In this document: piece after piece, positions 1-33,159 of the stretch
Layout of the letters: each line of letters begins with the position of its first letter
How positions within the stretch are numbered: position 1 is the first letter of the stretch
From: Pseudomonadota bacterium
GTDB lineage: Bacteria > Pseudomonadota > Gammaproteobacteria > UBA4575
Reading direction: 5' to 3'
DNA: 64,000 nt
Assembly (NCBI GenBank): GCA_039182865.1
Contig: JBCDBX010000001.1
Location: forward strand, 2,239 to 66,238
Program-made: the position numbers and the translations under genes
The notes under the pieces: generated by a model
The model's input: the letters and a program-made list of their open reading frames with translations, nothing else
What the model was told of the DNA's origin: nothing
The model's database searches: none

Positions 1-1
1 C

Positions 2-493: not shown

Positions 494-582
494 CTCAAAT
501 AATCTGCGTAAATTTAGAACTATTTCCAAATGGTGCTGTCGTATTTTATATGCACATTAATTCTACTAATAAGGAGAGCACC

Positions 583-1648: not shown

Positions 1649-1690
1649 CAGTTATCAAACCAGTATATCTGGGAGTACTGGCTAACTTAT

Positions 1691-3396: not shown

Positions 3397-3415
3397 ATCT
3401 ACAACTCATTTAAAC

Positions 3416-3455
3416 AAAAAAAAGCAGAGTATTTACTCTGCTTTTTTGTTTTTAG
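3416..3455. terminator. Bidirectional rho-independent terminator between convergent genes
   Basis: Perfect 8-bp stem GCAGAGTA/TACTCTGC (3424-3441), with an A-run on the left and a T6 run on the right. Confidence 0.7.
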
Positions 3456-3474
3456 CATGGCTTAATTTTTTTGC

Positions 3475-4134: not shown

Positions 4135-4142
4135 TGAAATGA

Positions 4143-5135: not shown

Positions 5136-5137
5136 AT

Positions 5138-6076
5138 CTAAAAACTAAAACTAATTGAATCTTTTATATCAGACGAATTGATTATTAACATTAATACGCG
5201 ATCTAAACCCACAGCCACACCCGCACAATCAGGCAAGCCATGTTGTTGCGCTACAATGAGCCGATAATCTACGTCAATTTCGGGAAGCTTACGTTGCTTT
5301 CTAATATCCAGATCTGTTTGAAAACGATCAAGCTGTTCTTTATGATCCGTGAGCTCAACATAGCCATTCGCCAGTTCTAATTCACCACAAAAGATTTCAA
5401 ATCGCTCAGCTGTTTGCGGATTGTCTTGAGTTATTTTTGCAAGAACCGCCTGTGATGAAGGATATTGATATACTATTGTTAGTGAATTTTTATCAAAAGT
5501 TTTTGTAACACAACGTGTAAACACAAAATCTAATAATTGATCTTTAGAAAAAGACTGTTGGATTTGCAGACCATGTTCGGATGCAATAGATTTAAGTTTC
5601 TCATGAGTAAGCTCAGATAAACTTAAATCCATTACCTGCATACATGCTTGCTCATAGCTAATATAGCTGGGCTGATCTAACCTTGTAACAAGCAAACAGA
5701 TTAAGTTTGCTGCTTCTTGCATAATTTCCTGCAAAGAAAAAGTTTTTCGATACCACTCAAGCATGGTGAATTCAGGATTATGCAAAGGACCTTTTTCACT
5801 TTTACGAAATGATTTGCAGATTTGATAAATATCGGGACTTCCTGATGCAATTAAACGCTTCATAGCATATTCAGGTGAGGTTTGCAGATAATACTTTTCA
5901 TCACCTATCATCACCTCAAATGATTCGATATTGGGGTCCGTTACTGTATATCTATCAAGCAAAGGAGTTTCGACTTCTAGCAGGCCACGTTCAAGAAAAA
6001 ACTCGCGCACTTGCATAAACATTTGAGCTCGCAGCCTGAGGGTTTCTAATGTGGTATTCGGCTGCCAATTTTGCAT
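5138..6076 (-). CDS. epmA: EF-P--(R)-beta-lysine ligase (truncated class II LysRS paralog)
   Basis: 312 aa. MQNWQPNTTLETLRLRAQM...FLERGLLEVETPLL matches GenX/PoxA throughout. Confidence 0.9.
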   Translation of the reverse strand: MQNWQPNTTLETLRLRAQMFMQVREFFLERGLLEVETPLLDRYTVTDPNIESFEVMIGDEKYYLQTSPEYAMKRLIASGSPDIYQICKSFRKSEKGPLHNPEFTMLEWYRKTFSLQEIMQEAANLICLLVTRLDQPSYISYEQACMQVMDLSLSELTHEKLKSIASEHGLQIQQSFSKDQLLDFVFTRCVTKTFDKNSLTIVYQYPSSQAVLAKITQDNPQTAERFEIFCGELELANGYVELTDHKEQLDRFQTDLDIRKQRKLPEIDVDYRLIVAQQHGLPDCAGVAVGLDRVLMLIINSSDIKDSISFSF

Positions 6077-6172
6077 ATTAATTAAACTTGACGAGAGTCA
6101 CGATTTTTTAATTAAATTCTGAAACTCGATTTATTTTAGGGTCATAGCAAATATTAGTCGAGATAGAAAGAT

Positions 6173-6742
6173 CTATTCTTTTACACGCGATACATATTCA
6201 CCTGTTCGCGTGTCAATCTTGATCACTTCACCTTCTTCAACAAATAGCGGGACTTTCACCATAGCACCTGTTTCTAGCGTGGCGGGTTTTGTTGCGCCTT
6301 GGGCCGTATCCCCTTTCACCCCAGGATCGGACTGTGTGATTTTAAGTTCAACAAAATTTGGTGCACTCACGGATAGTGGTGCACCGTTATATAAAGTGAC
6401 AGTGCATACATCATTATCCTTCAACCACTTTGCAGAATCGGCTACTGCAGTGGCATCCGCTGCATGCTGTTCATAGGTCTCTGGATGCATGAAATGCCAT
6501 TGCTCGCCATCGTTATACAAGTACTGCATATCAGTTTCCATGACATCGGCACCTTCGACACTATCTCCGGACTTGAATGTGCGATCAACTACACGACCAG
6601 TTTTTAAATTGCGCACTTTCACGCGATTAAATGCCTGACCTTTACCGGGCTTGACGAATTCATTTTCGACGATTGTGTAGGGATCGCCATCCAACATGAT
6701 TTTCAAACCTGACTTGAATTCATTTGTACTGTAGCTAGCCAT
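6173..6742 (-). CDS. efp: Translation elongation factor P
   Basis: 189 aa. Near-identical motifs to E. coli EF-P, including KPGKGQAF, which carries the beta-lysylated Lys. Confidence 0.95.
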
Positions 6743-6771
6743 AGAGATACTTCTAAATTGAAAGACGCGCT

Positions 6772-7758
6772 ATGATAGCGCGCATGCAAAGCTTGGAACA
6801 TACCCCTGACTGGAAAAAAATATTCGCAAGCGAATATGTTGGCATGACTAATCTCGATTATTCATGTCTGGATATTAGTCAAGATGAACTTAAAGATATA
6901 AACACCCTCTTTCCAGTTCAACTCACGCAATCACTTTTAAGAAATCATTCCGCTAACAGCAAAGTACTGCGACAGTATTTACCAAGCAGACAAGAATTGA
7001 TTAACCCTGTTGGCTACAATATTGACCCAGTTGGTGATCAACAGGCAACTCAACAAGATGGCATCATTAAAAAGTACAAAAATCGAGTCTTGTTGATAAC
7101 AACACATACCTGTCCAGTTCATTGCAGATACTGTTTTCGAAAAGATTACCCTTATGTAAAAGATAACCCAAACTCACATCACTTTAAAAATGCTATATCT
7201 TTTATTGAAAAAGATTCCAGCATAAATGAGGTAATACTAAGTGGAGGAGACCCGCTCAGCTTACAAGATGAGATGCTCTCACAATTATTCAAGACCCTTG
7301 AAAATATTCCTCACGTAAAGACTATTCGGATACATACAAAATTTCCCTCTATCATTCCTGAAAGACTTACCAATAAATTTTTAACTATGCTAGAAAAATG
7401 TAAGATAAATACAATCTGTGTATTTCATATCAATCATCCAGAAGAAATTACTAATAAGTTTTTTATCGTAGCTAAAAATATTCAAGCAACTGGAACAATC
7501 ATGCTGAATCAGTCTGTATTATTAAAAGACGTTAACGACGATCACAAAATTTTAATTGAGCTGTCACATAAATTATTTTCTGCAGGGACACTCCCCTATT
7601 ACCTACACATGCTTGACCCAGCGCGTGGCACGCATCATTTTCACGTAGAGAAGCGACAAGCAGAAGCAATTCTAGATTGTATGAAAAAAGAACTTCCTGG
7701 CTATTTAGTGCCCAAACTTGCTCAAGAAATAGCCGGAGAAATGAGCAAAATCTATTGA
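6772..7758 (+). CDS. epmB: EF-P beta-lysylation protein, lysine 2,3-aminomutase-like radical SAM enzyme
   Basis: CPVHCRYCFR radical-SAM CxxxCxxC motif. Divergent from efp, as in E. coli. Confidence 0.9.
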   Translation: MIARMQSLEHTPDWKKIFASEYVGMTNLDYSCLDISQDELKDINTLFPVQLTQSLLRNHSANSKVLRQYLPSRQELINPVGYNIDPVGDQQATQQDGIIKKYKNRVLLITTHTCPVHCRYCFRKDYPYVKDNPNSHHFKNAISFIEKDSSINEVILSGGDPLSLQDEMLSQLFKTLENIPHVKTIRIHTKFPSIIPERLTNKFLTMLEKCKINTICVFHINHPEEITNKFFIVAKNIQATGTIMLNQSVLLKDVNDDHKILIELSHKLFSAGTLPYYLHMLDPARGTHHFHVEKRQAEAILDCMKKELPGYLVPKLAQEIAGEMSKIY

Positions 7759-7922
7759 ATCTAACTTACTATTTCTTAGATGTTTATCCAAAACTCTTAC
7801 TATCTCATCACCCAGAATTTGTTGCTTAAACCGTCATTTTTTTGTTTATCTCGATAGGCGGACAGCCTCATCCGATAGGTAGCTAAGGTTCCTGCCGCTT
7901 TTTCAAGGGTCACACTATAAAA

Positions 7923-7944
7923 TTGATGAACAGGAACACATCAA
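7923..7944 (+). promoter_or_regulatory. Inverted repeat TTGATG-N10-CATCAA 17 nt upstream of the 7961 start codon (candidate operator)
   Basis: The 6-bp arms are perfect reverse complements. It overlaps a TATAAAAT -10-like element (7916-7923), and an AAGGGAA RBS follows it. Confidence 0.3.
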
Positions 7945-7960
7945 AATTTAAGGGAATATC

Positions 7961-9706
7961 ATGCTTCTGGATATGCAAATCTATATACCAAGTCAGGACC
8001 CGTTGGCTCATGAAGATTTCGCATTGACACCTCGAAAAGTTAAAAAGTGGATTAAGTCAGCATCACTTGCTGATCCGCAAAAAGCAAGCACGGAATTAAT
8101 CGAACTTATCTCCAATAGCAACCGTGTTACATTCCCAAGCAAGCAGCGCTACGCCTCATTAGAAATATTGGCGCCAATTTGTAAATCAATTTTAGCCCAA
8201 CATAGTAAATCTTTATCTCATCAGACGTTTCCTCTATCAGGAAATGCCGTAAAAAGTCATAATTTTCAGCAATCAATTTTAGCTGAAATAGCAATCTCTT
8301 ATAAGATTATTATTGCTGAAGCTGTGCATGGTGATAACAGTCTCAATCAGAAGAAATTACTATTATCACTTTTCAAGGCTATTTGTTGTTTAAAACAAGA
8401 ATATGTTTCGAGCTTACTAACATATCAAAAAATCTCAGAAAACATCTGGCCTGATATCTGTCAGCTCTATCGTGTTGCAGAATTTTATGATTTTCAAAAT
8501 CGTGTTGTTCAAGATAGAGAGCTTTCAGAAAAAACAACAATCGCAAATATTTTTAAGTATCTATGCTCACTGACCATGATTTCATTCAATAAACTAAGGC
8601 AAGGTGAGGCAAGTGCTATTATAAAATTTTTAAACAAAAACTGTCAGCTAATCGAAATTCAAAGTAATCTTGAGACATTTACTGAAGATTATATTTATCT
8701 TGCTAATTTAGCGACTGGCAAACCGCCTTCGTACTACATACCTAGAGAAGTTCCCATATCTTCAGAGAACCGTTTTGTGCTTTATTCTTTATTCATAAAT
8801 AAACTTTCTGAATTAAAGCAAAAGTATGTGCAGTCTCATTCATACTATCTACACTCTGATGATGAGATTGATCCAGATCTTGCCAATCGTTTAATCGAAA
8901 TGATAGGCAAGCCTACACAAAGAAGCAAAAAGCGCCTAAAAAGCAATCAAAAAGTTAAAGCTATTATTTGCCTAGATAAGATTTTAGAGACTTTAAATCC
9001 TGAACAAGATGAGCCTGATCCCTTAGCTGAAGATTCTTATATTCTACATAGCATGGCCTTGTTACCGATTGAAGAAAAATCAAAAATTATTTTTGATGAA
9101 TCAAAGACAGGAGACAGTCAATGTCTAGATATCTCTCAAAATCTTTCAGATATTTGGGAACATGACTCAGAATTGAATTCTAAGAATGAACAACCTGAAG
9201 AAATAAAAAATAATGATGCCAATGAAACGGGAACCTGGAAAATCGATAACTATAGCTCAGGTGGGTTTTGCCTCACTTATGACACAGATGGAAGTTGCAA
9301 AACACGCGTTGGTGAAATCATCGCTATTCGTGACACAAACAACGCAGATCAAACCATTCAATGGTTAACCGGAACAATTCGGTGGATGCAATGTGATCCA
9401 CAGCATTCAAACCGAATTGGCGTTGAACTATTTGGTGCTGAATGCGCATTTATTACAATACATACTAATAATAATGATTCGACTAAATATCATGGTCTTT
9501 TACTTAAGAAAATTGAAGATAATGAAAAGAAATTTAGCTTGTTAGTCCCTACTCGAGTAAGTTTTGATTCAAATGACATAGTTATACGTGGCAAGAAAAG
9601 TGAACGTAGTGCGATTCTAGGACAAACACTTGAAAAGACTAGCTCTTTTACACATTTTGAAATACTTGAAATAGCGACACAGAATCAAGTTTTAAATAAT
9701 TTATAA
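7961..9706 (+). CDS. 581-aa protein: an approximately 420-aa N-terminal region of unknown function plus a C-terminal non-canonical PilZ domain
   Basis: Residues about 425-500 read KIDNYSSGGFCL ... RVGEIIAIRD ... GTIRWMQ ... RIGVELFG. This matches the PilZ (D/N)xSxxG motif and the beta-barrel core. No RxxxR sits at the canonical -20 to -30 position. The nearest is RSKKR, about 105 aa upstream. Confidence 0.55.
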   Translation: MLLDMQIYIPSQDPLAHEDFALTPRKVKKWIKSASLADPQKASTELIELISNSNRVTFPSKQRYASLEILAPICKSILAQHSKSLSHQTFPLSGNAVKSHNFQQSILAEIAISYKIIIAEAVHGDNSLNQKKLLLSLFKAICCLKQEYVSSLLTYQKISENIWPDICQLYRVAEFYDFQNRVVQDRELSEKTTIANIFKYLCSLTMISFNKLRQGEASAIIKFLNKNCQLIEIQSNLETFTEDYIYLANLATGKPPSYYIPREVPISSENRFVLYSLFINKLSELKQKYVQSHSYYLHSDDEIDPDLANRLIEMIGKPTQRSKKRLKSNQKVKAIICLDKILETLNPEQDEPDPLAEDSYILHSMALLPIEEKSKIIFDESKTGDSQCLDISQNLSDIWEHDSELNSKNEQPEEIKNNDANETGTWKIDNYSSGGFCLTYDTDGSCKTRVGEIIAIRDTNNADQTIQWLTGTIRWMQCDPQHSNRIGVELFGAECAFITIHTNNNDSTKYHGLLLKKIEDNEKKFSLLVPTRVSFDSNDIVIRGKKSERSAILGQTLEKTSSFTHFEILEIATQNQVLNNL

Positions 9707-9718
9707 GCAGTATGCAGT

Positions 9719-11794
9719 ATGGATGAAGTATTAAAATTATTAGTACTTAGCAATAATGCTAACAATGCAGATGATATTATCAGAACTGCCAAGTCTTCAG
9801 GGTTTGCAGTTCGTGATACTATTGTGTCATCCAAAGATGAGTTTTCTGACATATGCTCTTTTGTAGAACAATTCCATATTGCCATTATTTCTGATGACTT
9901 TGACCAGCTTAGCATTAATGAAGTTAGCTCTAGCCTCAAAAGTGATGAACATTATGTATCACTCATTGCACTCAGCAATAATATTGCAGAGACTCAAGCT
10001 GAATCGATGTCAAATGGAGCTGATGCCGTTATCCCTGCAGATGATAAATCACAGCTGACACATGCAATTACACAAATTGCAAAAACTGAATTATATATTC
10101 AGAATCTGCAATCCAAATCAGATGCATATGAGGATTTAAATCAACGCTACCAAAAAATTCTTAATATTTCGCAAGACGCTATTTGTTATATCCATGAAGG
10201 CTTGCACACCTATGTTAATAAATCCTACCTGAAATTATTTGGCATTGAGGATATGGAAGATGCAAGCGCTCTTTCGATTCTTGAACTTGTCAGCCCTGAG
10301 GATCATGATAACTTAAAAAATATTTTAAAAGACGTCCATAAAAATCAAAACTCAGGCGACACTAAGCTAAATTTTAAAACTCAAAATAAAACACAGATTC
10401 TTCAAGCAACTTATGACCCAGTACTTGTTGAAGGAGAAATTTGTGCACAATTTGTTATTCATTGGGAAATAGAAAGCTCTGAAGAGTTGCAGGAACAGAT
10501 TAGTTATATCTCTGAAAGAGATCTTGAGACTGGCTTCTTTCATAGAAAGTCTATCATCGATAAATTACAAGAAGTTTTAAAACCAGACCGCAGTGAATTA
10601 GTCACACACACATTTGTACAAATCGATATAGCAAACCTTGATTACATTCAAGACCAACAAGGCGTTATTGCATTGGACCAGCTTAGCACACATATTGCGG
10701 ATACACTTCAGTCATCTTGTGATGGTGAAGATCTGCTAGCAAAAATCACGGACAAGTCTTATGGCATCCTCACGGATATTACTGACAGTGAGCAGTTAAT
10801 TTTATTTGGAGAGAAATTACGTGAGAGATTTGATGATAATCCTTTAAAAGTTAATGGCATCACCATCGAGCCTAAATTTTATATTGGTGCTGTTCATTTA
10901 GATGAAATGATCGAACAAGCCTCAGATGCGCTTGCTGCCTCTAAGCAGGCTTGTGACCACGCTAGCGAGCATGACCTTAATGAACTCTATTTATATCAAA
11001 GAGACCCTGCAACACTCACAGGAACAATGCTTGATCAAAAATGGGCAAATGAATTACAAGAAGCTATTGATGAGAATCGACTTAAACTTCAATTCCAACC
11101 GATTATTAGTACCAATAACGATAATATTGATCGCTATCAAGTTTATACTCAACTAATTAGTAGAGAAGGCACCAAAATTTCAGTTGCTGGGATTTTGCCC
11201 AGTATTGAACGCTCTGGTGTCTCTTCCATGTTTGATCGATGGGTCGTTGATTTATCATTGATCAAACTTGCCGAGCATACGCAACATAATCCGAATTCAC
11301 AGTTCTTTGTTAAGTTAACCGCAGGTGCGGTATCTGATGCTTCATTTATTCCATGGCTTAGCAAAAAGTGTACTAGTCGAGGCGTTGATCCTGAGAGAGT
11401 GATATTTGATTTGCGTGAAGATGTGGCTATCAATAATTTAAAAGAAACGAGATCATTCTCTACAGAACTCAAGAAACTTGGTTTCCAAATTGCAATTGAT
11501 TCATTCGGCATTGGGCAAGACCCCAGCAAAATACTGACCATGGTTCCTGCGGCTTATTTAAAACTAAGCTTTCAGTTAGTCTCTGGGATTAAAGACAATG
11601 ATGAGGAAAAAATTCAAGCCATCAGAAATATCTGCGAGGCCGCGAGTAATTCCGGTACCAAGATAGTAGCGCAGTTTGTAGAAAACGCAGAAGTCTTATC
11701 ACAATTATGGACAATGAATATTGACTATATAAGCGGTGATTTTTTCTGCAAAGTGGGTGCAAGCTTAGAGTACGACTTTTCAAGCGCTGCCTAG
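9719..11794 (+). CDS. FimX-like degenerate c-di-GMP protein: REC-like / PAS / GGDEF-like / EAL-like
   Basis: 691 aa. REC-like N-terminus with the acidic pair replaced (LLVLSNN). PAS (ICYIHEGLHTYVNKSYLKLFGIE). GGDEF fold starting ERDLETGFFHR, with the A-site GG(D/E)EF position reading TDKSYG. EAL fold (LQFQPIIS...) with EAL replaced by QVY and DDFGTG replaced by DSFGIG. The C-terminal (V)AEGVE and QGY positions read VAQFVE and SGDFF. Confidence 0.75.
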   Translation: MDEVLKLLVLSNNANNADDIIRTAKSSGFAVRDTIVSSKDEFSDICSFVEQFHIAIISDDFDQLSINEVSSSLKSDEHYVSLIALSNNIAETQAESMSNGADAVIPADDKSQLTHAITQIAKTELYIQNLQSKSDAYEDLNQRYQKILNISQDAICYIHEGLHTYVNKSYLKLFGIEDMEDASALSILELVSPEDHDNLKNILKDVHKNQNSGDTKLNFKTQNKTQILQATYDPVLVEGEICAQFVIHWEIESSEELQEQISYISERDLETGFFHRKSIIDKLQEVLKPDRSELVTHTFVQIDIANLDYIQDQQGVIALDQLSTHIADTLQSSCDGEDLLAKITDKSYGILTDITDSEQLILFGEKLRERFDDNPLKVNGITIEPKFYIGAVHLDEMIEQASDALAASKQACDHASEHDLNELYLYQRDPATLTGTMLDQKWANELQEAIDENRLKLQFQPIISTNNDNIDRYQVYTQLISREGTKISVAGILPSIERSGVSSMFDRWVVDLSLIKLAEHTQHNPNSQFFVKLTAGAVSDASFIPWLSKKCTSRGVDPERVIFDLREDVAINNLKETRSFSTELKKLGFQIAIDSFGIGQDPSKILTMVPAAYLKLSFQLVSGIKDNDEEKIQAIRNICEAASNSGTKIVAQFVENAEVLSQLWTMNIDYISGDFFCKVGASLEYDFSSAA

Positions 11795-12675
11795 TTTTTT
11801 TCAAGAGCGGCAATTCTTTGCTCCAGTGGTGGATGCGACATCAATAAGCTTTTTAAGCCACTTGCGATTCCACCTGAAATTCCAAATGCTGCCATCTCTC
11901 CTGGCAAATCTTGAGGCTCGTGCACAGACTGTAAACGTCGCAACGCACTGATCATCTTCTGCTTACCTGCCAAACTAGCACCTCCAGCATCCGCACGAAA
12001 CTCACGTTTACGAGAGAACCAGCTCGCAATGATCGCGGCAACAATTCCCAAAATTAACTCTGCAACAATACTACCAATGAAATAACCAGGCCCAATCCCT
12101 CTCTCAACCTTAAATACGACGCGATCAACCAACATGCCAATAATGCGTGAGAAGAAAATGACGAATGTATTTAGCACACCTTGTAGTAACCCCATCGTTA
12201 CCATATCTCCGTTCGCTACATGGCTAACTTCGTGACCAAGTACTGCCTCAACTTCATCTTGATTCATGGATTGCATGAGTCCCGTACTGACTGCAACGAG
12301 TGCATCATTCTTTTTCATCCCAGTAGCAAATGCATTAGGTTGCGGTGAATCAAACACTCCAACTTCTGGCATACCGATACCTGCCTGTTCTGCTTGGGTT
12401 TTAACCGTATCTAATAACCAACGTTCAGTATTATTTTTCGGCGTTTCAATTATTTGAACACCCATGCTTTTCTTAGCCATCCATTTAGATGCTGCTAAAG
12501 AAATAAAGGACCCACCAAATCCGAAGATCAAAGCCATAATTAAGAGACCGTTCATTTGCCCCATCATGCCTTGTTCAGCAAGCCATTGATCCAAACCTAG
12601 TACGCGCGCGGAAACGCTAAGCACCGCAAGCACACTAAAGTTTGCTAATAAAAATAAGCCTATTCTTGAAAACAT
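11791..12675 (-). CDS. htpX: Zn-dependent heat-shock protease HtpX
   Basis: HEVSHVANGD HExxH motif, four TM segments, and HtpX-like throughout. Confidence 0.9.
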   Translation of the reverse strand: MFSRIGLFLLANFSVLAVLSVSARVLGLDQWLAEQGMMGQMNGLLIMALIFGFGGSFISLAASKWMAKKSMGVQIIETPKNNTERWLLDTVKTQAEQAGIGMPEVGVFDSPQPNAFATGMKKNDALVAVSTGLMQSMNQDEVEAVLGHEVSHVANGDMVTMGLLQGVLNTFVIFFSRIIGMLVDRVVFKVERGIGPGYFIGSIVAELILGIVAAIIASWFSRKREFRADAGGASLAGKQKMISALRRLQSVHEPQDLPGEMAAFGISGGIASGLKSLLMSHPPLEQRIAALEKN

Positions 12676-12752
12676 GATTGCCCCTGTAACAGATCCATAG
12701 CACTATAAGATAATGACTAAATTTTACAATTCAATAACACAGGTAGCATGGT

Positions 12753-15014
12753 TTATTCTTCATGCATATCGACAATAATGCGGTCCACTGCACGATAACC
12801 ACGTGGCAACTTCAAACCACGACGTCCCCGCTCACCTGCATACTCATCAACTTCTTCACCTTTCATCACTTTATACTTCTTACCGCAGTATAAAGTAATC
12901 GGCTCATCATCCTGTACAAGCACAACATGAGTTACGGTTTCCTCACCCGCTTTTAATTTTGCAGCGGGTATGTTGATGAATTTAATGCCTTTACCTTTAG
13001 ACATCAATGGGAACTCAGCAAGTTCTGTCACTAACATATAACCCTCAGAAGCAATTGCCACAATCCAATCATCTTCATGAGAACGAACTCTCACAGGAGG
13101 AAGTACTGTTGCGCCAGCTGGTACATTCAGCACACGCTTACCTGCTTTATTGCGTGAATATAAATCCTCTAATTTGCAGATGAATCCATAGCCAAAGTTA
13201 GTCGCTAAGAAATATAGACTGTCCGGTGCGCCTAGCATGGCTCCGACAAAAGACGCTCCATCGGCTGGATTAAAACGAGCTGTTAAAGCTTCTCCTTGCC
13301 CCCGCGCAGAAGGCAAGCTATGTGTTGCTAGCGTATAAGCTTTACCTTGTGAATCTAAAAATACGGCTTGCTGATTACTCTTGCCTAATGCATGAGCCTG
13401 GTATTCATCACCTGATTTATAATTCATTGCAAGAGGGTCAACATCATGGCCTTTTGCAGCTCTCACCCAACCACGTTGGGATAAAATAACAGTACTTAGC
13501 TCCGCTGGCATTAACTGAGTTTCGTCTAATTGTTGCGCGACAGGCCTTTGAGCTAACCCAGAACGCCTATCATCACCATAAGTCTCAGCATCTTCTAACA
13601 ACTCTGTTCGAACTAATTTTTTAAGCCTTATTTTAGAGTTTAATGTTTTCTCTAGAGTGTCTCGTTCCTCAGCGAGCTCCTTAGCTTCTGATTTAATTTT
13701 GATTTCTTCGAGTTTAGCTAGACGACGTAACTTTATTTCTAAGATTGCTTCAGTCTGGATATCACTTAATTTAAACCGCTTCATCAAGACAGGCTTTGGC
13801 TCATCTTCAGATCGTATGATAGCAATGATCTCATCTATATTGAGATAAGCGATCAATAAGCCCTCCAGAATATGCAAACGCTCATTGACACGATCCAAGC
13901 GCCATTGCAATCGACGCGTCACCGTGGCGGTACGAAACTCCAACCATTCTTTTAATAAACTGCGCAGATCTTTTACTTGTGGCCGACCATTAATACCAAT
14001 GACATTAAGATTAACGCGATAAGTTTTTTCCAGATCAGTAGTCGCAAACAAGTGCAGCATTAAAGCTTCCACATCAACACGATTGCTACGAGGTACAATG
14101 ACTAGGCGAACAGGATTTTCATGATCAGACTCATCACGCAAGTCATCCACCATAGGCAGCTTCTTAGAATTCATCTGCTGAGCAATTTGCTCTTGTACAC
14201 GCGCACCTGATACTTGATATGGCAGCGCAGTAATGACTATTCCATCAGTTTCTTTTTCGTAAATTGCACGTGCTCGCACTTGCCCTGTGCCTGTCTCATA
14301 TATAGCACGAATTTCTTCAGGGCTCGAAATGATTTCTGCTTGCGTCGGGTAATCAGGCGCCTGGATATGCTCACACAACTCTGCAATCGTGGATTTAGGT
14401 GCATCTAATAAACGCACGCAAGCCGACACAACTTCGCGAATATTATGCGGAGGAATGTCGGTCGACATACCAACTGCAATACCCATTCCTCCATTTAATA
14501 AAATATTAGGCAAGCGTGCAGGCAACACAACGGGTTCTTCTAGAGTCCCGTCAAAGTTTGGTACCCAATCAACTGTGCCTTGACCTAGTTCTTGTAACAA
14601 TGATTTTGCATAAGGCGTTAGCTTTGATTCTGTATAACGCATGGCGGCAAAAGATTTAGGATCATCCGTTGAACCCCAATTACCCTGACCATCAACTAAG
14701 GGATAACGATAAGAAAAAGGTTGCGCCATTAACACCATCGCTTCATAGCATGCAGAATCACCATGCGGATGAAACTTACCAATGACATCGCCGACTGTGC
14801 GTGCTGATTTTTTTGGCTTTGATGTGGCAGACAAACCAAGCTCAGACATTGCATACACAATTCTTCTTTGTACCGGTTTTAATCCATCTCCTATTTGCGG
14901 TAACGCGCGATCCAATATCACATACATCGAATAATCGAGGTAAGCTTTCTCAGAGAAATCACGTAATGGAAGTCGCTCTATGTCACCATAATCGAATTCT
15001 AGATTTTCACTCAT
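12753..15014 (-). CDS. parC: DNA topoisomerase IV subunit A
   Basis: 753 aa, colinear with E. coli ParC. The catalytic Tyr region is ...AAMRYTE.... Confidence 0.95.
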
Positions 15015-15032
15015 AATAATTGCTCTTTAGTT

Positions 15033-16964
<1,932 letters not shown>

Positions 16965-16993
16965 CTATCCGATAACGAAATATCTATCTAACT

Positions 16994-19900
16994 ATGTCAA
17001 TTTTAGACGCGTCAACTCACCCAAAACAAAATGCAAACATATTTGCATCGGCAGGATCAGGTAAGACATGGTTACTAATTACACGTATTTGTCGTCTATT
17101 GCTTGACGGTGTCGAACCACAGCATATTTTAGCCATTACCTTCACACGAAAAAGTGCGGCGGAAATGCGCGCAAGGCTCTTCGAAAAATTAGCCTTTTGG
17201 GCTACGTGCAATGAGCATGAATTACTAGAAGATCTGAAAAATATTGGCGAGCAGTCCCGCACGCAAAATATCATGACCGCAAGGTCTTTATATGAGAAGT
17301 GCTTATTCTACGATCAATCGATTCGTATCAGCACATTTCATTCATTTTGTGAAGAAGTCATACGAGCATTTCCACTAGAGAGCGAATTGCCCAATTCATT
17401 CGAGTTAACAGAACATTATCAGCTCTATGCTAATCAGGCATGGCAACAACTTTTAAAAGCAAGTGAAAAGAATGAAAAGCTGAAAGATGCCTTACAAACT
17501 TTATATAAATATTGTTTTGGCTTAAAAGGTGCTCAAAGAGCATTAATGTGTTTCTTGGATACTCGCAGCGAATGGCACGCGTACACACAAAGACATGAAG
17601 ACCCTGCAAACTTCGCTTACCAGACATTGTTAAGCGTGATTGGGAACGAAAAAGAAAATGAGGGTAACCTCTTCATCAGCAACAAGTGCAAAACTGATTT
17701 ACAGCGTTATCAACAGATTTTACGTACCAGCCCGACAAAAACATATTTATCTTGGGCTGATAAACTGGAACAATATTTCGATCTTAAGCTCACTGATCAG
17801 TCAGTATGCTTGAAGAAACTTACAGAAATACTTCTAACAGCCAAAAATGAATTACGCAAACTCACTATTAGCAAGAAATGGCAATCATTGTTGAGTGAGG
17901 ATGATTACTTACATCTAACAGATACGCATAGCCATATAGGCGCAATTCTACTAAATGCTATAGAAACTCAAAAACATAATGAATTACTTCATGCTAATAA
18001 AGCATGGTTTTACGCCGGCGAGCAACTACTCAAGCATTATCAACACGTCAAGTTCTCGCAAGGAGTAATTGACTTTAGCGATCTTGAATGGGAAACCTTC
18101 CGCTTATTGCAATTCGAGCATAATGTAGAATGGATACACTATAAATTAGGTCAAAGAATTCGGCATTTCTTAGTCGATGAATTTCAAGACACCAATCCGA
18201 TTCAATGGCATTTACTAAAGCCTTTAATTGAAGCCTCACAGGAGCAATACGAAGGTGACTCTAATAGTCTATTTTTAGTAGGTGATATTAAACAATCCAT
18301 CTATCGCTTTCGAGGCGCTAACCCTGAAATCCAAAGTCTTGCATCGCAGTGGTCACAATCCGCGCTGAACAGCAACGAGCTTAACAACAATCATTCCTGG
18401 CGATCCTCTCCTGCGATAATAAATCTTGTTAACGAGATATTCTCTTCTGAGTTAATGAAAAAATCTTTTCCATCTTTCCAACCTCATAGCTGTGAGCATG
18501 AGAATCGTTGGGGAATGATAAAAATCTTCCCGTTAATTCCAATTGAACAGCAACAAACTCAAGAAAAATTTCGCAATCCTTTAACGACGCCTTTTAAAGA
18601 CAACGAAGAGACCGTACATTTCCATGAAGGTTGCCTGATTGCTGAAGAAATTCAGAAATTAATTGCCGACAAAACACCAATATATGACGAAAATTCAATT
18701 TACTCAGCAAGCTATAGCGATATACTCATTCTCACACGCAATCGCTCACATCTAAAAGATATTAAAGCAGGATTGCTCCAGGCACATATTCCATTTAATA
18801 GTCGAGATGGCAATTATCTACTCGAATATCTGGAAGTCAAAGACATCTTGTCATTGCTGCAAGTATTGATAGATCCTTATAATGATTTAAAGCTTGCGCA
18901 AGTATTGCGATCCCCTATTTTTAGCATATCTGATGAAGATTTAATTGCGCTTAGAACAGCCGAAGCCGAAATCTGGATGGATAAGCTTGTACAAATTGCT
19001 GAAACGAAAGAATCAAATCATCCTCTCCACACAGCTATCTCTAAAATTAAAGACTGGCAAAATTTAGTCGACCACATTCCTGTGCATGATTTAATGAGTC
19101 ATATATTTAAATCCAGAGACATCATAAGTCGCTATCGAGATAGTGTTGATCAATTTGAAGCTGAACACGTAAGTAGTCGACTGAATCAATTGTTACATCA
19201 GTGTCTGGAGCTAGACAGTGGAAGATATTCAAGTGTTTCACGATTTCTACATAAAATAAAAATGATCAACCCTGAAGTGATACTGGATTCAGGTGAAGAT
19301 TCTATCAATAGAGTTGAAATAATGACGGTACATGGCGCTAAGGGTCTGGAAGCACCGATTGTTTTTATTGCGGATATTGGCCCTAATCACGAACGACCCG
19401 AGCAATTCAGAGCCTTATCCAACTGGCCTGCAGAATCAAATGCACCACTCTCTATCATGTTAACCACCAGCAAAAATAATATGAGTGAAGCAGCTTTATC
19501 ATTTAAAAATGCTATTGAACAAAATGATGAGGATCTAAACTTGTTGTATGTTGCACTGACACGCGCTAAACAAATCATGATTATGACCGGATCACAATCG
19601 AAAAGAGCAACTCCTTGTTGGTATGATCAACTAAGCCAGGCATTAAATCTAGCCGATGATGAAATTTACCAAAAAGAACATCTATCAAAACCGCCGCTCA
19701 CTCAAACAACACCAACAATCACTGAGAGTAAAACTATAGAAATTTCAAATAGATTACTCCAGCCTATTTCTGAGCCTTTAAAAAACAAATCTGCTATTTT
19801 GAATACAAATACATCTACACGTGAAGGCATCATTATTCATAAATTACTTGAGATACTTTCGACTACTCATGACTTAAATGACCAAGGACTACTTAACCGG

Positions 19901-20293
19901 ATTTCTCTAGACACAAACTTAGAATGCGATTTTGACGAGTTAAAAATATATAAAACTGAAGTGTTTAATTGCCTAAACGACGAAACTATTAAATCAATAT
20001 TTGAGTTAGAACCAAATCATCAGGCTTATAATGAATTTGCAATTGCTACTACTAGCAAGCATCAGAATATTAATATCATCGATCGATTAATTCTCAGCAC
20101 TGAAACTGCTTGGATTATCGATTTCAAAACTCAACATGATGTAGATGAAAATAATGTGATGGAAGTAGCTACAACTCATCAGCAACAACTTAGCCGATAT
20201 AAGACAGCGATAAGCTCACTCTATCCTAATTTATCTATTCGATGTTCTATAGTATTTACCAAAATACCCAAACTAGTTGATATCCAAATATAA
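16994..20293 (+). CDS. AddA/RecB-like SF1 helicase with a C-terminal RecB-family PD-(D/E)xK nuclease
   Basis: UvrD-family helicase motifs I (ASAGSGKT), Ia (ILAITFTRKSAAEMR), II (VDEFQDTN), III (GDIKQSIYRFRGA), V (VHGAKGLE) and VI (LLYVALTRAK). The C-terminus carries RecB nuclease motifs (IDRLILS ... IIDFKTQ ... QQQLSRYKTA). Confidence 0.8.
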   Translation: MSILDASTHPKQNANIFASAGSGKTWLLITRICRLLLDGVEPQHILAITFTRKSAAEMRARLFEKLAFWATCNEHELLEDLKNIGEQSRTQNIMTARSLYEKCLFYDQSIRISTFHSFCEEVIRAFPLESELPNSFELTEHYQLYANQAWQQLLKASEKNEKLKDALQTLYKYCFGLKGAQRALMCFLDTRSEWHAYTQRHEDPANFAYQTLLSVIGNEKENEGNLFISNKCKTDLQRYQQILRTSPTKTYLSWADKLEQYFDLKLTDQSVCLKKLTEILLTAKNELRKLTISKKWQSLLSEDDYLHLTDTHSHIGAILLNAIETQKHNELLHANKAWFYAGEQLLKHYQHVKFSQGVIDFSDLEWETFRLLQFEHNVEWIHYKLGQRIRHFLVDEFQDTNPIQWHLLKPLIEASQEQYEGDSNSLFLVGDIKQSIYRFRGANPEIQSLASQWSQSALNSNELNNNHSWRSSPAIINLVNEIFSSELMKKSFPSFQPHSCEHENRWGMIKIFPLIPIEQQQTQEKFRNPLTTPFKDNEETVHFHEGCLIAEEIQKLIADKTPIYDENSIYSASYSDILILTRNRSHLKDIKAGLLQAHIPFNSRDGNYLLEYLEVKDILSLLQVLIDPYNDLKLAQVLRSPIFSISDEDLIALRTAEAEIWMDKLVQIAETKESNHPLHTAISKIKDWQNLVDHIPVHDLMSHIFKSRDIISRYRDSVDQFEAEHVSSRLNQLLHQCLELDSGRYSSVSRFLHKIKMINPEVILDSGEDSINRVEIMTVHGAKGLEAPIVFIADIGPNHERPEQFRALSNWPAESNAPLSIMLTTSKNNMSEAALSFKNAIEQNDEDLNLLYVALTRAKQIMIMTGSQSKRATPCWYDQLSQALNLADDEIYQKEHLSKPPLTQTTPTITESKTIEISNRLLQPISEPLKNKSAILNTNTSTREGIIIHKLLEILSTTHDLNDQGLLNRISLDTNLECDFDELKIYKTEVFNCLNDETIKSIFELEPNHQAYNEFAIATTSKHQNINIIDRLILSTETAWIIDFKTQHDVDENNVMEVATTHQQQLSRYKTAISSLYPNLSIRCSIVFTKIPKLVDIQI

Positions 20294-20325
20294 AAAAGGC
20301 CGCTTGCATTCAACAAGCGGCCCTT
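20292..20325. terminator. Bidirectional rho-independent terminator
   Basis: 9-bp stem GGCCGCTTG/CAAGCGGCC with a 7-nt loop. An A6 run precedes it, which reads as a T-run on the minus strand. Confidence 0.7.
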
Positions 20326-20350: not shown

Positions 20351-21088
20351 TTAGCTACCTTGATCAGCTTTTGCTTGATTCATGTGGTCTAAGCGTTGTG
20401 CTAGTTCTTTAGCTGGCAAGTAACCTGGCATTAATTCACCACTTTGGGTAAGAATAGCAGGCGTACCAGTTACGCCGATTTTATTCCCAATCTCAAACTG
20501 CTCAGCCACGGGGTTTTGACAAGTTTTCTCATCGATTGGCTGACCATTTTTCGCTTTAGTCAGCGCCTCTTCTTTGTCGTCACTACACCAAACATTGACT
20601 GACTTTACATAACTAGGACTATTGAGTCCATTACGCGGAAACAATAAGTAATTCACTTTAATTCCATAACTCGCATATTGATCCATCTCAGCATGTAATT
20701 TTCTGCAGTAGCCACAATCGATATCTGTAAACACGGTCACAGTATATTTGGGTTGTTTTGCGCCAAAAGAAATGGGCTCTTGATCAAAAACATCAGACAT
20801 TAGTGCTTGACGTGCACGACCTGCTGATACTTCTGTCAGGTTTCGCCTACCATCATCAAGATCCATTAATACACCTTGGAATAAATATCTCCCATCCTCT
20901 GAGATATAAATCGCCTGCGTGCCATACATGACCTCATACCATCCATCAACAGGTGACTTAGATACTGAATCAGGTGTATGCGTGGGAAATGTATCAACTA
21001 ACTTCTTCTTTAGTGCTTCTGACTCGTCTGCCTGCACAAGCAAAGGTAATATTAATAGTACGCAAAAAATCAATGTCCTTTTAAACAT
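20351..21088 (-). CDS. dsbC: Periplasmic thiol:disulfide interchange protein DsbC
   Basis: Signal peptide, CGYC active site, and a C-terminal second disulfide pair (WCSDD...TC). Adjacent to xerD, as in E. coli. Confidence 0.85.
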   Translation of the reverse strand: MFKRTLIFCVLLILPLLVQADESEALKKKLVDTFPTHTPDSVSKSPVDGWYEVMYGTQAIYISEDGRYLFQGVLMDLDDGRRNLTEVSAGRARQALMSDVFDQEPISFGAKQPKYTVTVFTDIDCGYCRKLHAEMDQYASYGIKVNYLLFPRNGLNSPSYVKSVNVWCSDDKEEALTKAKNGQPIDEKTCQNPVAEQFEIGNKIGVTGTPAILTQSGELMPGYLPAKELAQRLDHMNQAKADQGS

Positions 21089-21164
21089 GCTGATTCCTTA
21101 AATTTTAGAAAAGTAAAAAGTAGACCGGAAAAAAGTTAATTCTATCCCAAATTTAAAATTACTT

Positions 21165-22088
21165 TCATCCTCTTGGATGGTGTTCGCGATGAAGCTCCTG
21201 TAGCCGGGCTTGAGCAATATGTGTGTACACTTGAGTTGTAGACAAATCACTATGTCCAAGCAACATTTGAACAACCCTCAAATCTGCACCATGATTTAAC
21301 AAATGGGTCGCAAAAGCATGCCTTAATGTATGCGGGCTCAAATGCTTATCAATACCCACAGCTTTTGCATGGCGCTTAATAACATGCCAAAAAGCTTGTC
21401 TAGTCATCCCCAATCCACGATTAGAAATAAATAGTACACTGCAATCATGCCCTTCCTTTAGCAATGCTGGACGAGCTTGATCCAAATACCGCTCTAACCA
21501 CTCGCCGGCTTGCTCTCCAAAGGGAACTAAACGCTCTTTATTCCCTTTTCCTATAATTCTAATGACACCCGCACGAATATTGATTTGGTGTAACTGAAGA
21601 TTTATTAATTCTGAAACTCTCAAACCACAAGCATACAAGACTTCTAGCATAGTTCGATCACGAATTCCTTGAGCCTTATGAATATTTGGTGCACCTAAAA
21701 GCTTTTCAACATCATCTTCAGTCAGCACCTCGGGTAATTGACGACCTAATTTTGGAAATTCTATCTTCTCAGCCGGATCAACTTCGAGTAAGCCCTGACG
21801 TATTTGATATTTATAAAAACGTCGAATACTTGATAATAATCTTGCGCCTGACCTTGGCTGCATCCCTTTTGATACTCGAAATGCAAAATACTCTAATAAG
21901 TCCTCATGTTTAGCATCAGCTATACTCGTCTTAGATTTCCCAAGCCACTTAACTAAATTTAACAAGTCATTACGATACGCGCTTAAAGTATTTTCGCTTA
22001 AACCATATTCCATCCAGATGTTGTCTAAGAAAGATTCTACAATTGTATTGTCTTGATCAAAATGGATTGTAGCGGCATTAGCAACCAT
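21165..22088 (-). CDS. xerD: Site-specific tyrosine recombinase XerD
   Basis: The R...HxxR...Y catalytic residues are present (HTLRHAFATHLL, LGHSDLSTTQVYTH). Confidence 0.9.
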   Translation of the reverse strand: MVANAATIHFDQDNTIVESFLDNIWMEYGLSENTLSAYRNDLLNLVKWLGKSKTSIADAKHEDLLEYFAFRVSKGMQPRSGARLLSSIRRFYKYQIRQGLLEVDPAEKIEFPKLGRQLPEVLTEDDVEKLLGAPNIHKAQGIRDRTMLEVLYACGLRVSELINLQLHQINIRAGVIRIIGKGNKERLVPFGEQAGEWLERYLDQARPALLKEGHDCSVLFISNRGLGMTRQAFWHVIKRHAKAVGIDKHLSPHTLRHAFATHLLNHGADLRVVQMLLGHSDLSTTQVYTHIAQARLQELHREHHPRG

Positions 22089-24968: not shown

Positions 24969-26462
24969 ATGGAGTATCTCGTAAAACGCACCTCAATTAC
25001 TAGCGAAAAAACGGCTTGCGCAGTGGTCGCCGTGTTTGCAAATAAGCGTTTAAGTGACGAGGCTCAGCAATTAGACAAAAAATATCGCGGTATTATTTCA
25101 GCCGCCGTAAAAAGTGGAGATATTTCCGGCAACACTGGCCAATCCCTTTTACTTCATACGCCCAAAACTGCAACCCATAAGCGCATACTTTTGATTGGTT
25201 GCGGAAAACCAAGCGACTTAAATATTCAGAATTACAAGAAAATAATCCGCGCTTGCGCGACTAGCTTAAAAGGTTTAAGCGCAAATGATGCCATTAGTAC
25301 ATTAAATTCTCTTGCTATTAAAGACAGTGATATGGAAACACTAACACGCTTACATATCATTATTAGCGAAGATGTATTTTATCAATATGATGAGACTTTA
25401 TCGAAAAAGAAATCTGCCTCAAAACTTAAGCGAATTAAATTTTTAGCTAGCGACGCAAATCAATTAACGATAATCAAAAAAAACATCATACAAGGTAAAG
25501 CCATCGCTAGCGGAATGATGGCCACGAAAGAACTCGGCAATCTCCCAGGCAATATTTGCACACCTACTTATCTGGCTAAATGTGCTCATGAAATAAATCG
25601 AGGACAAAATAAATTATCACTACAAGTACTTGATGAAGCCGAAATGAAAAAACTAGGGATGGGTGCCTTGTTATCAGTATCCGCTGGCAGCGCACAACCC
25701 GCCAAAATGATCATCCTGAACTACAAGGGTGCTGCTAAATCTGAAAAACCCATTGTACTTGTTGGCAAAGGTATCACTTTTGATACAGGTGGCATCTCAT
25801 TGAAGCCAGGAGCTGCTATGGATGAAATGAAATTCGATATGTGCGGCGCTGCAACAGTTCTTGGCACTATGCAGGCGATTAATGAAATGGAGTTACCTCT
25901 AAATGTTGTCGGTATTGTTGCTAGTGCAGAAAATATGCCAGGTGGAAAAGCGACTAAACCGGGTGATGTTGTGACTTCAATGTCAGGACAAACAATTGAG
26001 ATTCTAAATACAGATGCTGAAGGACGTTTAGTATTATGTGATGCACTCACCTATGCAGGTCGCTTTGATCCTGATGTCGTCATTGATATGGCGACATTAA
26101 CAGGCGCTTGCCTTGTCGCATTAGGTCTTGAATGTAGTGGTTTAATGAGTAATTCCGATGAACTGAGTGAAGATTTAATCAGCGCAGGTCAGACCACTGG
26201 AGATCGCACCTGGCGTCTCCCTATTTGGGATGAATATCAACCGCTAATTGATAGCAACTTTGCAGATATAGCGAATATTGGAGGCCGTTGGGCAGGTACG
26301 ATCACTGCAGCATGTTTTCTTGCACGCTTCACCAAGGAATATAATTGGGCTCATTTAGATATTGCCGGCGTGGCTTGGAACATGGGCGGAAAAAACAAAG
26401 GGGCTACTGGACGACCTGTCCCCATGCTGACGGAATACTTGATGCAACGCGCTAAAGACTAG
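24969..26462 (+). CDS. pepA: Leucyl aminopeptidase (M17)
   Basis: MEYLVKRTSITSEKTACAVVAVF parallels the E. coli PepA N-terminus. NTDAEGRL M17 signature. The start is taken at the internal Met, which has a CAGGAGAA RBS. Confidence 0.9.
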   Translation: MEYLVKRTSITSEKTACAVVAVFANKRLSDEAQQLDKKYRGIISAAVKSGDISGNTGQSLLLHTPKTATHKRILLIGCGKPSDLNIQNYKKIIRACATSLKGLSANDAISTLNSLAIKDSDMETLTRLHIIISEDVFYQYDETLSKKKSASKLKRIKFLASDANQLTIIKKNIIQGKAIASGMMATKELGNLPGNICTPTYLAKCAHEINRGQNKLSLQVLDEAEMKKLGMGALLSVSAGSAQPAKMIILNYKGAAKSEKPIVLVGKGITFDTGGISLKPGAAMDEMKFDMCGAATVLGTMQAINEMELPLNVVGIVASAENMPGGKATKPGDVVTSMSGQTIEILNTDAEGRLVLCDALTYAGRFDPDVVIDMATLTGACLVALGLECSGLMSNSDELSEDLISAGQTTGDRTWRLPIWDEYQPLIDSNFADIANIGGRWAGTITAACFLARFTKEYNWAHLDIAGVAWNMGGKNKGATGRPVPMLTEYLMQRAKD

Positions 26463-26881
26463 TGCCCCAAGTAGATTTTTATGTAGTAGAAGACAACGCG
26501 CATAACGCGTGGCTGCGTTATGCATGTCGTCTTATAGAAAAAGCTTATACTATGGGTTTACATATCCACATTCAAACACCTGACGAATCTATGACAAAGC
26601 AAATGGATGATTTGCTTTGGACTTTTCGTGATCGCAGTTTTATACCTCACCAAAGTGCCTGTGAAGCAAATGAGCTCTGCGCTGTCACACTTAATCATGA
26701 AACTCCAAATGAAACTCGTGAGGTACTTGTTAATCTATGCCCCAACGTTCCTGACAATTTCCAACTCTACAAACGAATTGTCGAAGTCGTCGCCAATAAT
26801 GACGCCATGAAACAAACCGCGCGCGAAAGATTTAGATTCTATAAAGATCATGGTGAAGCACCAACACACCATCAGGTCTAA
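26462..26881 (+). CDS. holC: DNA polymerase III chi subunit
   Basis: 139 aa, HolC-like. GTG start overlapping the pepA stop (TAGTG). pepA-holC-valS synteny. Confidence 0.75.
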   Translation: MPQVDFYVVEDNAHNAWLRYACRLIEKAYTMGLHIHIQTPDESMTKQMDDLLWTFRDRSFIPHQSACEANELCAVTLNHETPNETREVLVNLCPNVPDNFQLYKRIVEVVANNDAMKQTARERFRFYKDHGEAPTHHQV

Positions 26882-31452: not shown

Positions 31453-33159
31453 ATGAAACTGCTACTTCCATTGTTACTAGTATCACTCTTATCGTCTGCT
31501 GCATTTGCCGACAAGAATAAGCACTCTACTAAAGAATTATTAGAAGAGGCAGAGCAGACTATGCAAAGCCCAGAAGTTTCACCTGTGCGAAGAATCGAAC
31601 CTAAATTCAACAAGAATAAAAATAAACAGCACAATATTATTTATCGGAATATTGATGGTAGTTTCAACAATATTATCGATGATCAAATGAATGTCACAGA
31701 TACACAATTGATACGAGTCGCTGATGAAACTTACGGTGATGGTATCAGTGCTATGGGAGGAACTGATCGACCAAACCCAAGAGCAATCAGTAATGCGGCG
31801 TTATCTCAGACAGAATTATCATTCGCAAGTACAGGGGCAAGTGATTTTTTATGGCAATGGGGTCAATTTTTGGATCATGATATTGATTTGACCGAGGGCG
31901 TACACCCTGCCGAAGAAGTCCCTATCTCCATTCCTGCTGGTGATATACATTTCGACCCAAATAATATGGGCAATGTCGTCTTAGCATTCAACCGTTCAAT
32001 ATATGATACAAATACGGGAACAGATTCCAGTAATCCGCGTCAGCAAAAAAATGAAATTACGGGTTGGATTGATGCTTCGAATGTATATGGCTCGGATGAT
32101 GAACGCGCTCAAGCTTTGCGCAGATTGGATGGTTCAGGAAAGCTAAAAACTAGCGATGGTCGCCTTCTACCATTTAATACTGATGGCTTAATTAATGCAG
32201 GCGGTCCTAGTGCTGAATTTTTCTTGGCAGGCGACCCTCGTGCGAATGAACAAATAGGCTTAACCGTCATGCATACTCTGTTCGTGCGAGAACATAACCG
32301 TCTTGCAAGAATAATCGCTAAAAAGAATCCATTTTACAGCGGCGAAAGAATTTATCAGACAGCTCGTCGAATCGTAGCGGCTCAAATGCAAGTCATCACT
32401 TACAATGAATTTTTACCGATACTACTTGGCAAAAATGCAATTCCTAAATATGAAGGCTATGATCCTAATATAGACGCACGTATTGCAAACGAATTTTCAA
32501 CAGCGGCGTACCGACTCGGCCATAGTTTGCTATCACCACAAATTCTACGTATATATAAAAAACGTAAAAATTTCGACAATAGTGAAATCTCTTTACGCGA
32601 AGCTTTCTTTGCACCATTTCTTCTGACCAAAAAGAATAACATTGGCTCTATATTGCGCGGCTTAGCTTCTCAACAGTGTCAAGAACTTGATGTGTTCGTT
32701 ATTGATGACGTACGTAATTTCTTGTTTGGTCAGCCCGGAAGCGGAGGCTTTGATCTTGCTTCATTAAACATTCAACGTGGGCGAGATCATGGTCTTGGAA
32801 GCTACAATCAAACACGTATTGCACTTGGTTTACCTGCTGCTACTTCATTTGAAGATATTTCTTCTGACCCTGACATCCAAGCTAGACTTTCCAATGCTTA
32901 CGACAACGTAGACTTAATCGACCTCTGGGTGGGGGGATTAGCTGAAGATAAAGTTGATGGCGCCATGGTCGGACCCGTATTTTATGAGATTCTTAGAGAT
33001 CAATTCATACGCTTACGTGACGGAGATCGATTTTGGTACGAAAACGATATGAGTAAGAAAGAAATAAGGAACATTAAGAAAACAACTTTAGCAAAAATAA
33101 TTCGGCGCAATACAGGAGTTGGCAGAGAATTACAAAACAATGTTTTCTTGGTTAAGTAA
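31453..33159 (+). CDS. Secreted animal-type heme peroxidase (peroxidase-cyclooxygenase superfamily)
   Basis: Signal peptide. Distal His/Asp motif WGQFLDHDID. RANEQ heme-linking Glu motif. Proximal His in TLFVREHNRLA. Distal Arg in FSTAAYRLGHS. Confidence 0.8.
   Translation: MKLLLPLLLVSLLSSAAFADKNKHSTKELLEEAEQTMQSPEVSPVRRIEPKFNKNKNKQHNIIYRNIDGSFNNIIDDQMNVTDTQLIRVADETYGDGISAMGGTDRPNPRAISNAALSQTELSFASTGASDFLWQWGQFLDHDIDLTEGVHPAEEVPISIPAGDIHFDPNNMGNVVLAFNRSIYDTNTGTDSSNPRQQKNEITGWIDASNVYGSDDERAQALRRLDGSGKLKTSDGRLLPFNTDGLINAGGPSAEFFLAGDPRANEQIGLTVMHTLFVREHNRLARIIAKKNPFYSGERIYQTARRIVAAQMQVITYNEFLPILLGKNAIPKYEGYDPNIDARIANEFSTAAYRLGHSLLSPQILRIYKKRKNFDNSEISLREAFFAPFLLTKKNNIGSILRGLASQQCQELDVFVIDDVRNFLFGQPGSGGFDLASLNIQRGRDHGLGSYNQTRIALGLPAATSFEDISSDPDIQARLSNAYDNVDLIDLWVGGLAEDKVDGAMVGPVFYEILRDQFIRLRDGDRFWYENDMSKKEIRNIKKTTLAKIIRRNTGVGRELQNNVFLVK

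Follow-up and report, generated by a model that had tools for sequence, protein, structure and literature searches.

An intact proteobacterial-type addA gene with no adjoining addB, set between parE and dsbC in a gammaproteobacterial genome

AddAB enzymes are 1:1 complexes in which AddA contributes a 3'->5' SF1A helicase motor and, for cleavage of the 3' strand, a RecB-type nuclease, while AddB contributes the 5'-strand nuclease and, in the enzymes that have been studied, Chi recognition. A stretch of 64,000 nucleotides from a gammaproteobacterial assembly (part of the 100,178-bp contig JBCDBX010000001.1; hereafter the window) carries at positions 16994-20293 (+ strand) a gene whose product resembles AddA and RecB and which, as an earlier note on this DNA had observed, adjoins no gene for a partner subunit: AddA provides its best-scoring family model, and none of AddB, RecC, or RecD was detected among the large open reading frames (ORFs) of the window that were scanned. 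The question raised by this locus is whether such a solitary addA belongs to an ordinary AddAB enzyme whose second gene lies elsewhere, or whether its product acts alone, in defence, or in an accessory capacity. We favour an ordinary housekeeping AddA with an unlinked addB elsewhere in the genome, a reading to which we assign a probability of roughly 0.6. The window gene would then encode the AddA subunit of a proteobacterial-type AddAB enzyme that resects double-strand breaks.

The AddA protein and its family

The gene is a single intact ORF of 1099 codons with an ATG start. Its stop-to-stop frame opens just six codons 5' of this ATG, and alignment places M1 level with the first residue of 12 homologues. 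An antisense ORF lying within the gene (17017-17274, - strand, 85 aa) was considered and rejected as a gene, its apparent homologues being reverse translations of the conserved Walker A region. Analysis of the protein with Pfam revealed matches to UvrD-helicase (8e-52) and UvrD_C (1e-29), and every helicase signature residue that was checked in the Walker A motif, the DEFQD motif, and motifs III-VI is invariant in an alignment of 114 full-length homologues. These include G21, G23, K24, and T25 of Walker A, or helicase motif I (ASAGSGKT, residues 18-25; 17045-17068, + strand), motif II (DEFQDT, residues 395-400; 18176-18193, + strand), R440 of motif III, R470 of motif IV, G784 and E786 of motif V, and R857 of motif VI. 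The C-terminal RecB-type PD-(D/E)xK nuclease domain (approximately residues 940-1099; 19811-20290, + strand) is legible in the motifs GIIIHKLLE, IIDRLI, IIDFKT, and QQLSRY, and its residues G945, H949, E1014, D1030, D1043, K1045, Q1065, and Y1069 are likewise invariant in the 114 homologues. When the C-terminal 172 residues were isolated, they matched PF12705 (PDDEXK_1) marginally, at 21.5 bits (E 2.6e-4) against a gathering score of 22. The earlier description of a full set of UvrD-type motifs joined to a C-terminal RecB-type nuclease is thus upheld by the helicase matches and by the invariance of the catalytic residues.

Comparison with NCBIfam models places the protein with the proteobacterial AddAs. 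The top family model is addA_alphas (TIGR02784) at 569 bits, followed at a distance by addA_Gpos (293), recB (TIGR00609; 220), pcrA (182), and uvrD (172), while the epsilonproteobacterial 'RecB-like helicase' model PRK13909 yields 258-262 bits. Among solved structures the nearest is AddA of Bacillus subtilis (3U44_A, 5e-45), ahead of UvrD, PcrA, and RecB, and full-length identity to AddAs encoded with addB directly upstream is 32-37%. By cut-off alone the protein would be left out of TIGR02784, as 569 bits falls short of the curated threshold of 860.75. This threshold is equally missed by AddA of Thiogranum longum (590 bits, in effect an equal score), the start of whose gene is overlapped by the gene for a 964-aa AddB, and by other gammaproteobacterial relatives (552-611 bits), and the cut-off thus reflects the alphaproteobacterial seed of the model rather than non-membership of the window protein.

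The earlier note had also proposed that the gene might encode a single-protein helicase-nuclease of the class found in anti-phage defence, and a related possibility is that it is cargo of a mobile element. PADLOC does report matches of up to 162 bits to GajB ('UvrD helicase'), and these are the only matches that it returns; they span part of the helicase core, and the same models score 142 bits on the addB-linked AddA of Thiogranum. As the linked protein scores equally well, these matches report just the shared UvrD fold. In a closed relative of the window (locus L007) the vicinity of addA includes genes for a methyltransferase, an Endonuclease_7, and an AbiJ-like protein, which would suit a defence role, yet no GajA-like or other defence partner adjoins addA in the window, and its housekeeping neighbours (htpX, parC, parE, dsbC, xerD, lptFG, pepA, holC, and valS) are conserved among homologues whose protein identity ranges from 63% to about 35%. 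The G+C content of the gene equals that of its surroundings, and tblastn against plasmids and phages returned at most 31% identity, the best matches being addA genes on Ralstonia and rhizobial chromids. With generic PADLOC matches, conserved housekeeping neighbours, and no close plasmid or phage relatives, the anti-phage suggestion is not borne out, and a defence or mobile-element origin appears to us hardly credible. The window gene is a genuine and undamaged proteobacterial-type addA that has been inherited vertically, in a housekeeping context.

Gene order in related loci

In the window, parE (15033-16919, - strand) diverges from addA and is followed by parC and htpX, while on the other side dsbC (20351-21088, - strand) converges on addA and is followed by xerD and then by RDD, lptG, lptF, pepA, holC, and valS; the position between parE and dsbC given previously is therefore correct. 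Matches to NCBIfam models leave the identity of the divergent genes clear, with 992 bits for parE (parE_Gneg, TIGR01055), 1057 for parC (parC_Gneg), and 424 for HtpX. To set this arrangement beside those of its relatives, at least 160 loci were added by genome and metagenome scans and were annotated through BLAST comparison with the window proteins and through an AddB hidden Markov model (HMM) that had been built from 10 adjacently encoded AddBs. Context was counted over the 90 listed loci that encode a full-length AddA of this gammaproteobacterial family. An AddB ORF that ends at or overlaps the start of addA lies upstream in 40 of them, the parE arrangement in 34, and other genes in about eight, for instance ftsH-glmM-tpiA in 'Ca. 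Porisulfidus' or a PAS-GGDEF-EAL gene (L162); in the remaining eight the contig ends too near to be informative.

The htpX-parC-parE block (11791-16919, - strand), which is found upstream of addA in the 34 related loci, occupies in the window the place where addB-linked relatives have fdxA-addB. In the linked loci, fdxA, encoding a DUF3470 ferredoxin, immediately precedes addB in about 27 of the 29 cases with enough sequence, often with mutS before it; both genes are missing from the window and from every solitary-addA locus examined. On the downstream side the two arrangements agree. The dsbC-xerD pair (20351-22088, - strand, in the window) lies 3' of addA in both, as does the longer series dsbC-xerD-RDD-lptGF-pepA-holC-valS, and in L128 and some other addB-linked loci addB-addA converges on dsbC-xerD so that the locus equals the window in all except the upstream gene. 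The divergent htpX-parC-parE and the convergent dsbC-xerD flank addA across homologues that range in identity between 63% and about 35%, several of them on closed or megabase contigs; the large relatives include ERZ25070167 ctg394315 (2.41 Mb, circular), ERZ26050812 ctg28279 (1.83 Mb, circular), ERZ18545485 ptg000009l (2.16 Mb), and CBDHFH010000008.1 (1,476,849 bp).

To judge by these gene orders, the ancestral arrangement is (mutS)-fdxA-addB-addA, often with dsbC-xerD after it. On this view the window preserves the addA half of an operon that came apart at the boundary with addB. We propose that an old rearrangement in the lineage of the window split the operon at this junction, and that addA remained beside dsbC-xerD, now facing parE. 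The detached addB should then lie at another site in the genome, the likeliest being its old place after mutS-fdxA.

The window lineage is not alone in carrying a solitary addA. In 'Ca. Porisulfidus' (L010; OZ220480.1, 2.02 Mb, positions 5307-13372) addA follows ftsH-glmM-tpiA and precedes the same dsbC-xerD-RDD-lptGF-pepA-holC-valS series as in the window, making this a second deep gammaproteobacterial lineage with a solitary addA. In neighbour-joining (NJ) trees of AddA, and of XerD together with DsbC, the parE-type loci fall into two or more clusters set apart by addB-linked lineages; either the divergent parE-addA junction has formed repeatedly or these trees do not settle the deepest splits. 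A different arrangement in which parE and addA adjoin was observed in L119 (JGI Ga0256832_1000012, positions 6581-15784), where addB-addA is met directly downstream by a convergent parE that has no adjacent parC.

Gene order also bears on the possibility that breaks are repaired by RecBCD or another system and that AddA is a retained paralogue with an accessory role resembling that of UvrD or Rep. Some gammaproteobacteria do have AddAB-like pairs as well as RecBCD. The window gene, however, occupies a position orthologous to that of addA in the addB-linked relatives, and it has kept a nuclease active site that a pure accessory helicase would not need, so that we regard such a role as quite improbable.

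The partner gene and the constraint on AddA

If the housekeeping reading is right, an addB should exist in the window genome, and several results weigh against it. The AddB HMM, run with all filters off, found no match in any frame of the 64-kb window, and the 8 kb past its 3' end, which hold map, glnD, dapC/D/E, and a gene for a TonB-dependent receptor, contain no addB. No addB lies within 10 kb of addA in the approximately 34 parE-type loci, and in the sequence searched none was found for the window genome or for any relative with the divergent parE-addA arrangement. Thirty AddB representatives were examined and none could be placed on a contig carrying a solitary addA. A point of a different kind is that the nuclease domain goes unreported when the whole window protein is compared with Pfam.

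The reach of the AddB searches qualifies these negatives. A query with the AddB protein of L168 returned at least 120 listed matches, all at least 52% identical, and a profile made from these matches and run against 50%-identity representatives recovered at least 150 lineages, with a lowest listed score of 735 bits. Calibration indicated that AddB partners of the window clade would probably score near or below this cut. AddBs as divergent as those expected of the window clade lay beyond the reach of these searches. Among linked pairs, AddB identity follows AddA identity closely (r = 0.95). A profile of the most divergent AddB representatives recovered only a small Thiotrichales lineage of AddB, again with none on the solitary-addA contigs. 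One sequence that had been entertained as a partner for the window clade, P0386, was rejected on finding that it comes from an ordinary mutS-fdxA-addB-addA locus (L171).

A solitary addB was found in a related lineage. Locus L170 (Logan SRR33230236, positions 1-6897; AddB representative P0294) reads mutS-fdxA-addB, and 253 bp past its intact addB lies an opposite-strand PrcB_C-like gene, with no remnant of addA. AddBs of the linked relatives carry the cysteines of an Fe-S 'iron staple' (CPYxFF ... CxxCxxxGLCR), and the L170 protein keeps CPYAFF, GRIDRID, IDYKTG, and CRYCAFDGLCRK. L170 is the counterpart of the window, with the addB portion of a divided operon still in the ancestral setting. 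It cannot be tied to a parE-type genome, which must be counted with the results unfavourable to an unlinked partner. Pairing by distance profiles had matched P0294 with the AddAs of parE-type cluster 2, and this assignment was not used because the method failed an independent control: in a local test on 20 linked pairs the median rank of the true partner was 2, and in the control P0386 ranked its own adjacent AddA from L171 24th by root-mean-square deviation and 74th by correlation among 141.

These observations invite the alternative that AddB has been lost in the clade, leaving AddA as a single-motor helicase-nuclease, on its own or joined to some unrelated protein, that would unwind ends or resect the 3' strand, with the 5' strand left to another nuclease such as RecJ. 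In its favour, none of the clade sequence inspected (the window, the 8 kb beyond it, and about 34 loci) contains addB, solitary addA is very common in the family (34 parE-type and about eight other contexts among the 90 listed loci), and the AddAs of the window clade and of 'Ca. Porisulfidus' are the most divergent of the set. A comparison in which region 211-330 and the linker at 901-930 appeared slightly less conserved in the window clade pointed the same way, although it is unreliable, its supposed outgroup having contained parE-type sequences (e.g. P0073), and it has been superseded by a test over the 207 sites at which addB-linked AddAs are conserved to 95% or more. This test revealed that the window clade deviates at 9-20% of the sites, which is no higher than for addB-linked AddAs of the same divergence, those of betaproteobacteria deviating at 16% and 21%; for those parE-type AddAs that stand closer to the linked ones, the figure is 2-6%. 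The alignment of homologues shows that length and linker are preserved; although identity within the clade falls to 35-40%, neither of these features nor any catalytic residue has been lost, which counts against loss of the partner. Judged from these sequences, nothing suggests that AddA of the window clade has been freed from the constraints of the AddAB complex. The intact solitary addB of L170 also shows that splitting of the operon need not mean loss, and in the genomes surveyed AddA without AddB is rare, almost every genome with one of the two having the other as well (PMC1193525). Loss of AddB in the clade is, in our estimation, unlikely, and the broader claim that a large and mostly uncultured gammaproteobacterial radiation, including the lineages with divergent parE and addA and others such as 'Ca. 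Porisulfidus', has lost AddB and resects breaks with a solitary AddA that keeps both active sites, a pared-down relative of AddAB/RecBCD with one subunit, is similarly doubtful.

Returning to the housekeeping reading, we infer that the window genome retains addB and that its product associates with AddA in the usual way. The earlier suggestion of a dispersed addA agrees with the synteny shared with addB-linked addA, with the undiminished constraint on the protein, and with the solitary addB of L170. If the partner is simply elsewhere, the window gene is a routine housekeeping addA, and the value of the locus lies in what it reveals along the way. Annotation pipelines under-call such AddAs as 'UvrD-helicase domain-containing protein' because they fall below the threshold of the alphaproteobacterial model. 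The by-products of the analysis are the ancestral order mutS-fdxA-addB-addA and the breakage of the addB-addA junction in numerous gammaproteobacterial lineages. They point to the downstream flank of mutS-fdxA as the likely place for the partner gene and caution against reading 'no AddAB' from gene adjacency. Should closed genomes of the clade prove to be without addB, they would supply a natural single-subunit AddA in which the split of labour between the nuclease and Chi-recognition subunits becomes directly testable.

Neighbourhood of the gene and known AddAB systems

The intergenic signals on either side of addA serve its neighbours better than addA itself. The earlier note had placed a divergent promoter between parE and addA. 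The 74-bp spacer contains a promoter-like site on the parE strand (TAGATA-17-TAGAAT; 16962-16990, - strand), identified by match to the consensus only, and the sole block of the spacer that is conserved across seven related loci including the window is CATTCTAT (+ strand; 16962-16967 in the window), which read on the parE strand is the TAGAAT -10 hexamer (ATTCTA on the + strand) and is kept in L003, L004, L008, L091, L092, and L110. A consensus scan of the spacer gave no comparable match for addA, so that the proposal is supported only in part. A shared terminator with dsbC had likewise been suggested. One nucleotide past the addA stop codon there is a GC-rich hairpin of 13 pairs (20295-20325), followed by TTTTATATTT on the - strand and predicted to be the intrinsic terminator of dsbC. 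The T-run accompanies it only in the dsbC direction, the + strand side having AATAAAAT. The hairpin is thus a good predicted terminator for dsbC and for addA would be at best a weak one, so that this suggestion too is supported only in part.

Several features farther from addA deserve mention. The gene for a PAS-GGDEF-EAL protein (9719-11794, + strand) is preceded by a 581-aa ORF (7961-9706, + strand) with no Pfam or NCBIfam hit, and the two stand before htpX-parC-parE in several relatives of the parE type; the position of the 581-aa ORF, upstream of the same genes, is taken in L006 and L089 by a gene with a match to Pfam FimW_N. The foreign-looking genes of L007 (ERZ26050812 ctg28279, positions 1-5700 and 14466-15801) are an N6_N4 methyltransferase and an Endonuclease_7/His-Me nuclease between dsbC and xerD, and an AbiJ_NTD4 protein with another methyltransferase upstream of parC, where they replace htpX. 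An ORF of 568 aa at 31453-33159 (+ strand) matches the Pfam family 'Animal haem peroxidase' nearly end to end (E 3e-162), with no NCBIfam hit, placing an enzyme of the peroxidase-cyclooxygenase superfamily in a small-genome gammaproteobacterium. Lastly, holC (26462-26881, + strand; Pfam), for the chi subunit of DNA polymerase III, and the gene for the DinG-family repair helicase YoaA (34239-36179, - strand; 786 bits in NCBIfam) lie 7 kb apart. HolC and YoaA are partner proteins in E. coli.

Among known systems, Gabija GajB and other UvrD-like helicases of defence have the UvrD helicase core in common with the window AddA, and the resemblance covers part of that core; in contrast to them, the window protein lies in a housekeeping context without GajA or another defence partner. 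RecB of RecBCD shares the plan of an SF1A helicase connected through a long linker to a C-terminal RecB nuclease, yet it is a much weaker match (220 bits for TIGR00609; 2e-16 for PDB 1W36_B), and no recC or recD occurs among the window ORFs scanned. In Helicobacter pylori, addA and addB are unlinked and their products nevertheless form AddAB, which is a precedent for dispersed genes. The H. pylori protein belongs to another AddA subfamily, PRK13909, which scores 258-262 bits on the window AddA against 569 for addA_alphas, and its partner is known, whereas none was found for the window AddA in the sequence searched. AddA of the B. subtilis AddAB complex (PDB 3U44/3U4Q/4CEH) has the same helicase-plus-nuclease architecture, with sequence similarity to the window AddA limited to the helicase core (residues 347-870), and Firmicute AddB is not clearly orthologous to proteobacterial AddB (PMC1193525). 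The closest counterpart by family model is the proteobacterial 'alpha-type' AddAB (TIGR02784), an enzyme type studied in Rhizobium etli, according to work cited in PMC1193525, and in Coxiella burnetii (Mertens et al. 2008, as cited in PMC4647677). Although the window addA has htpX-parC-parE in the place of an adjacent addB, its product shares with these AddAs the same domain order, the same length, and all of the helicase and nuclease motifs.

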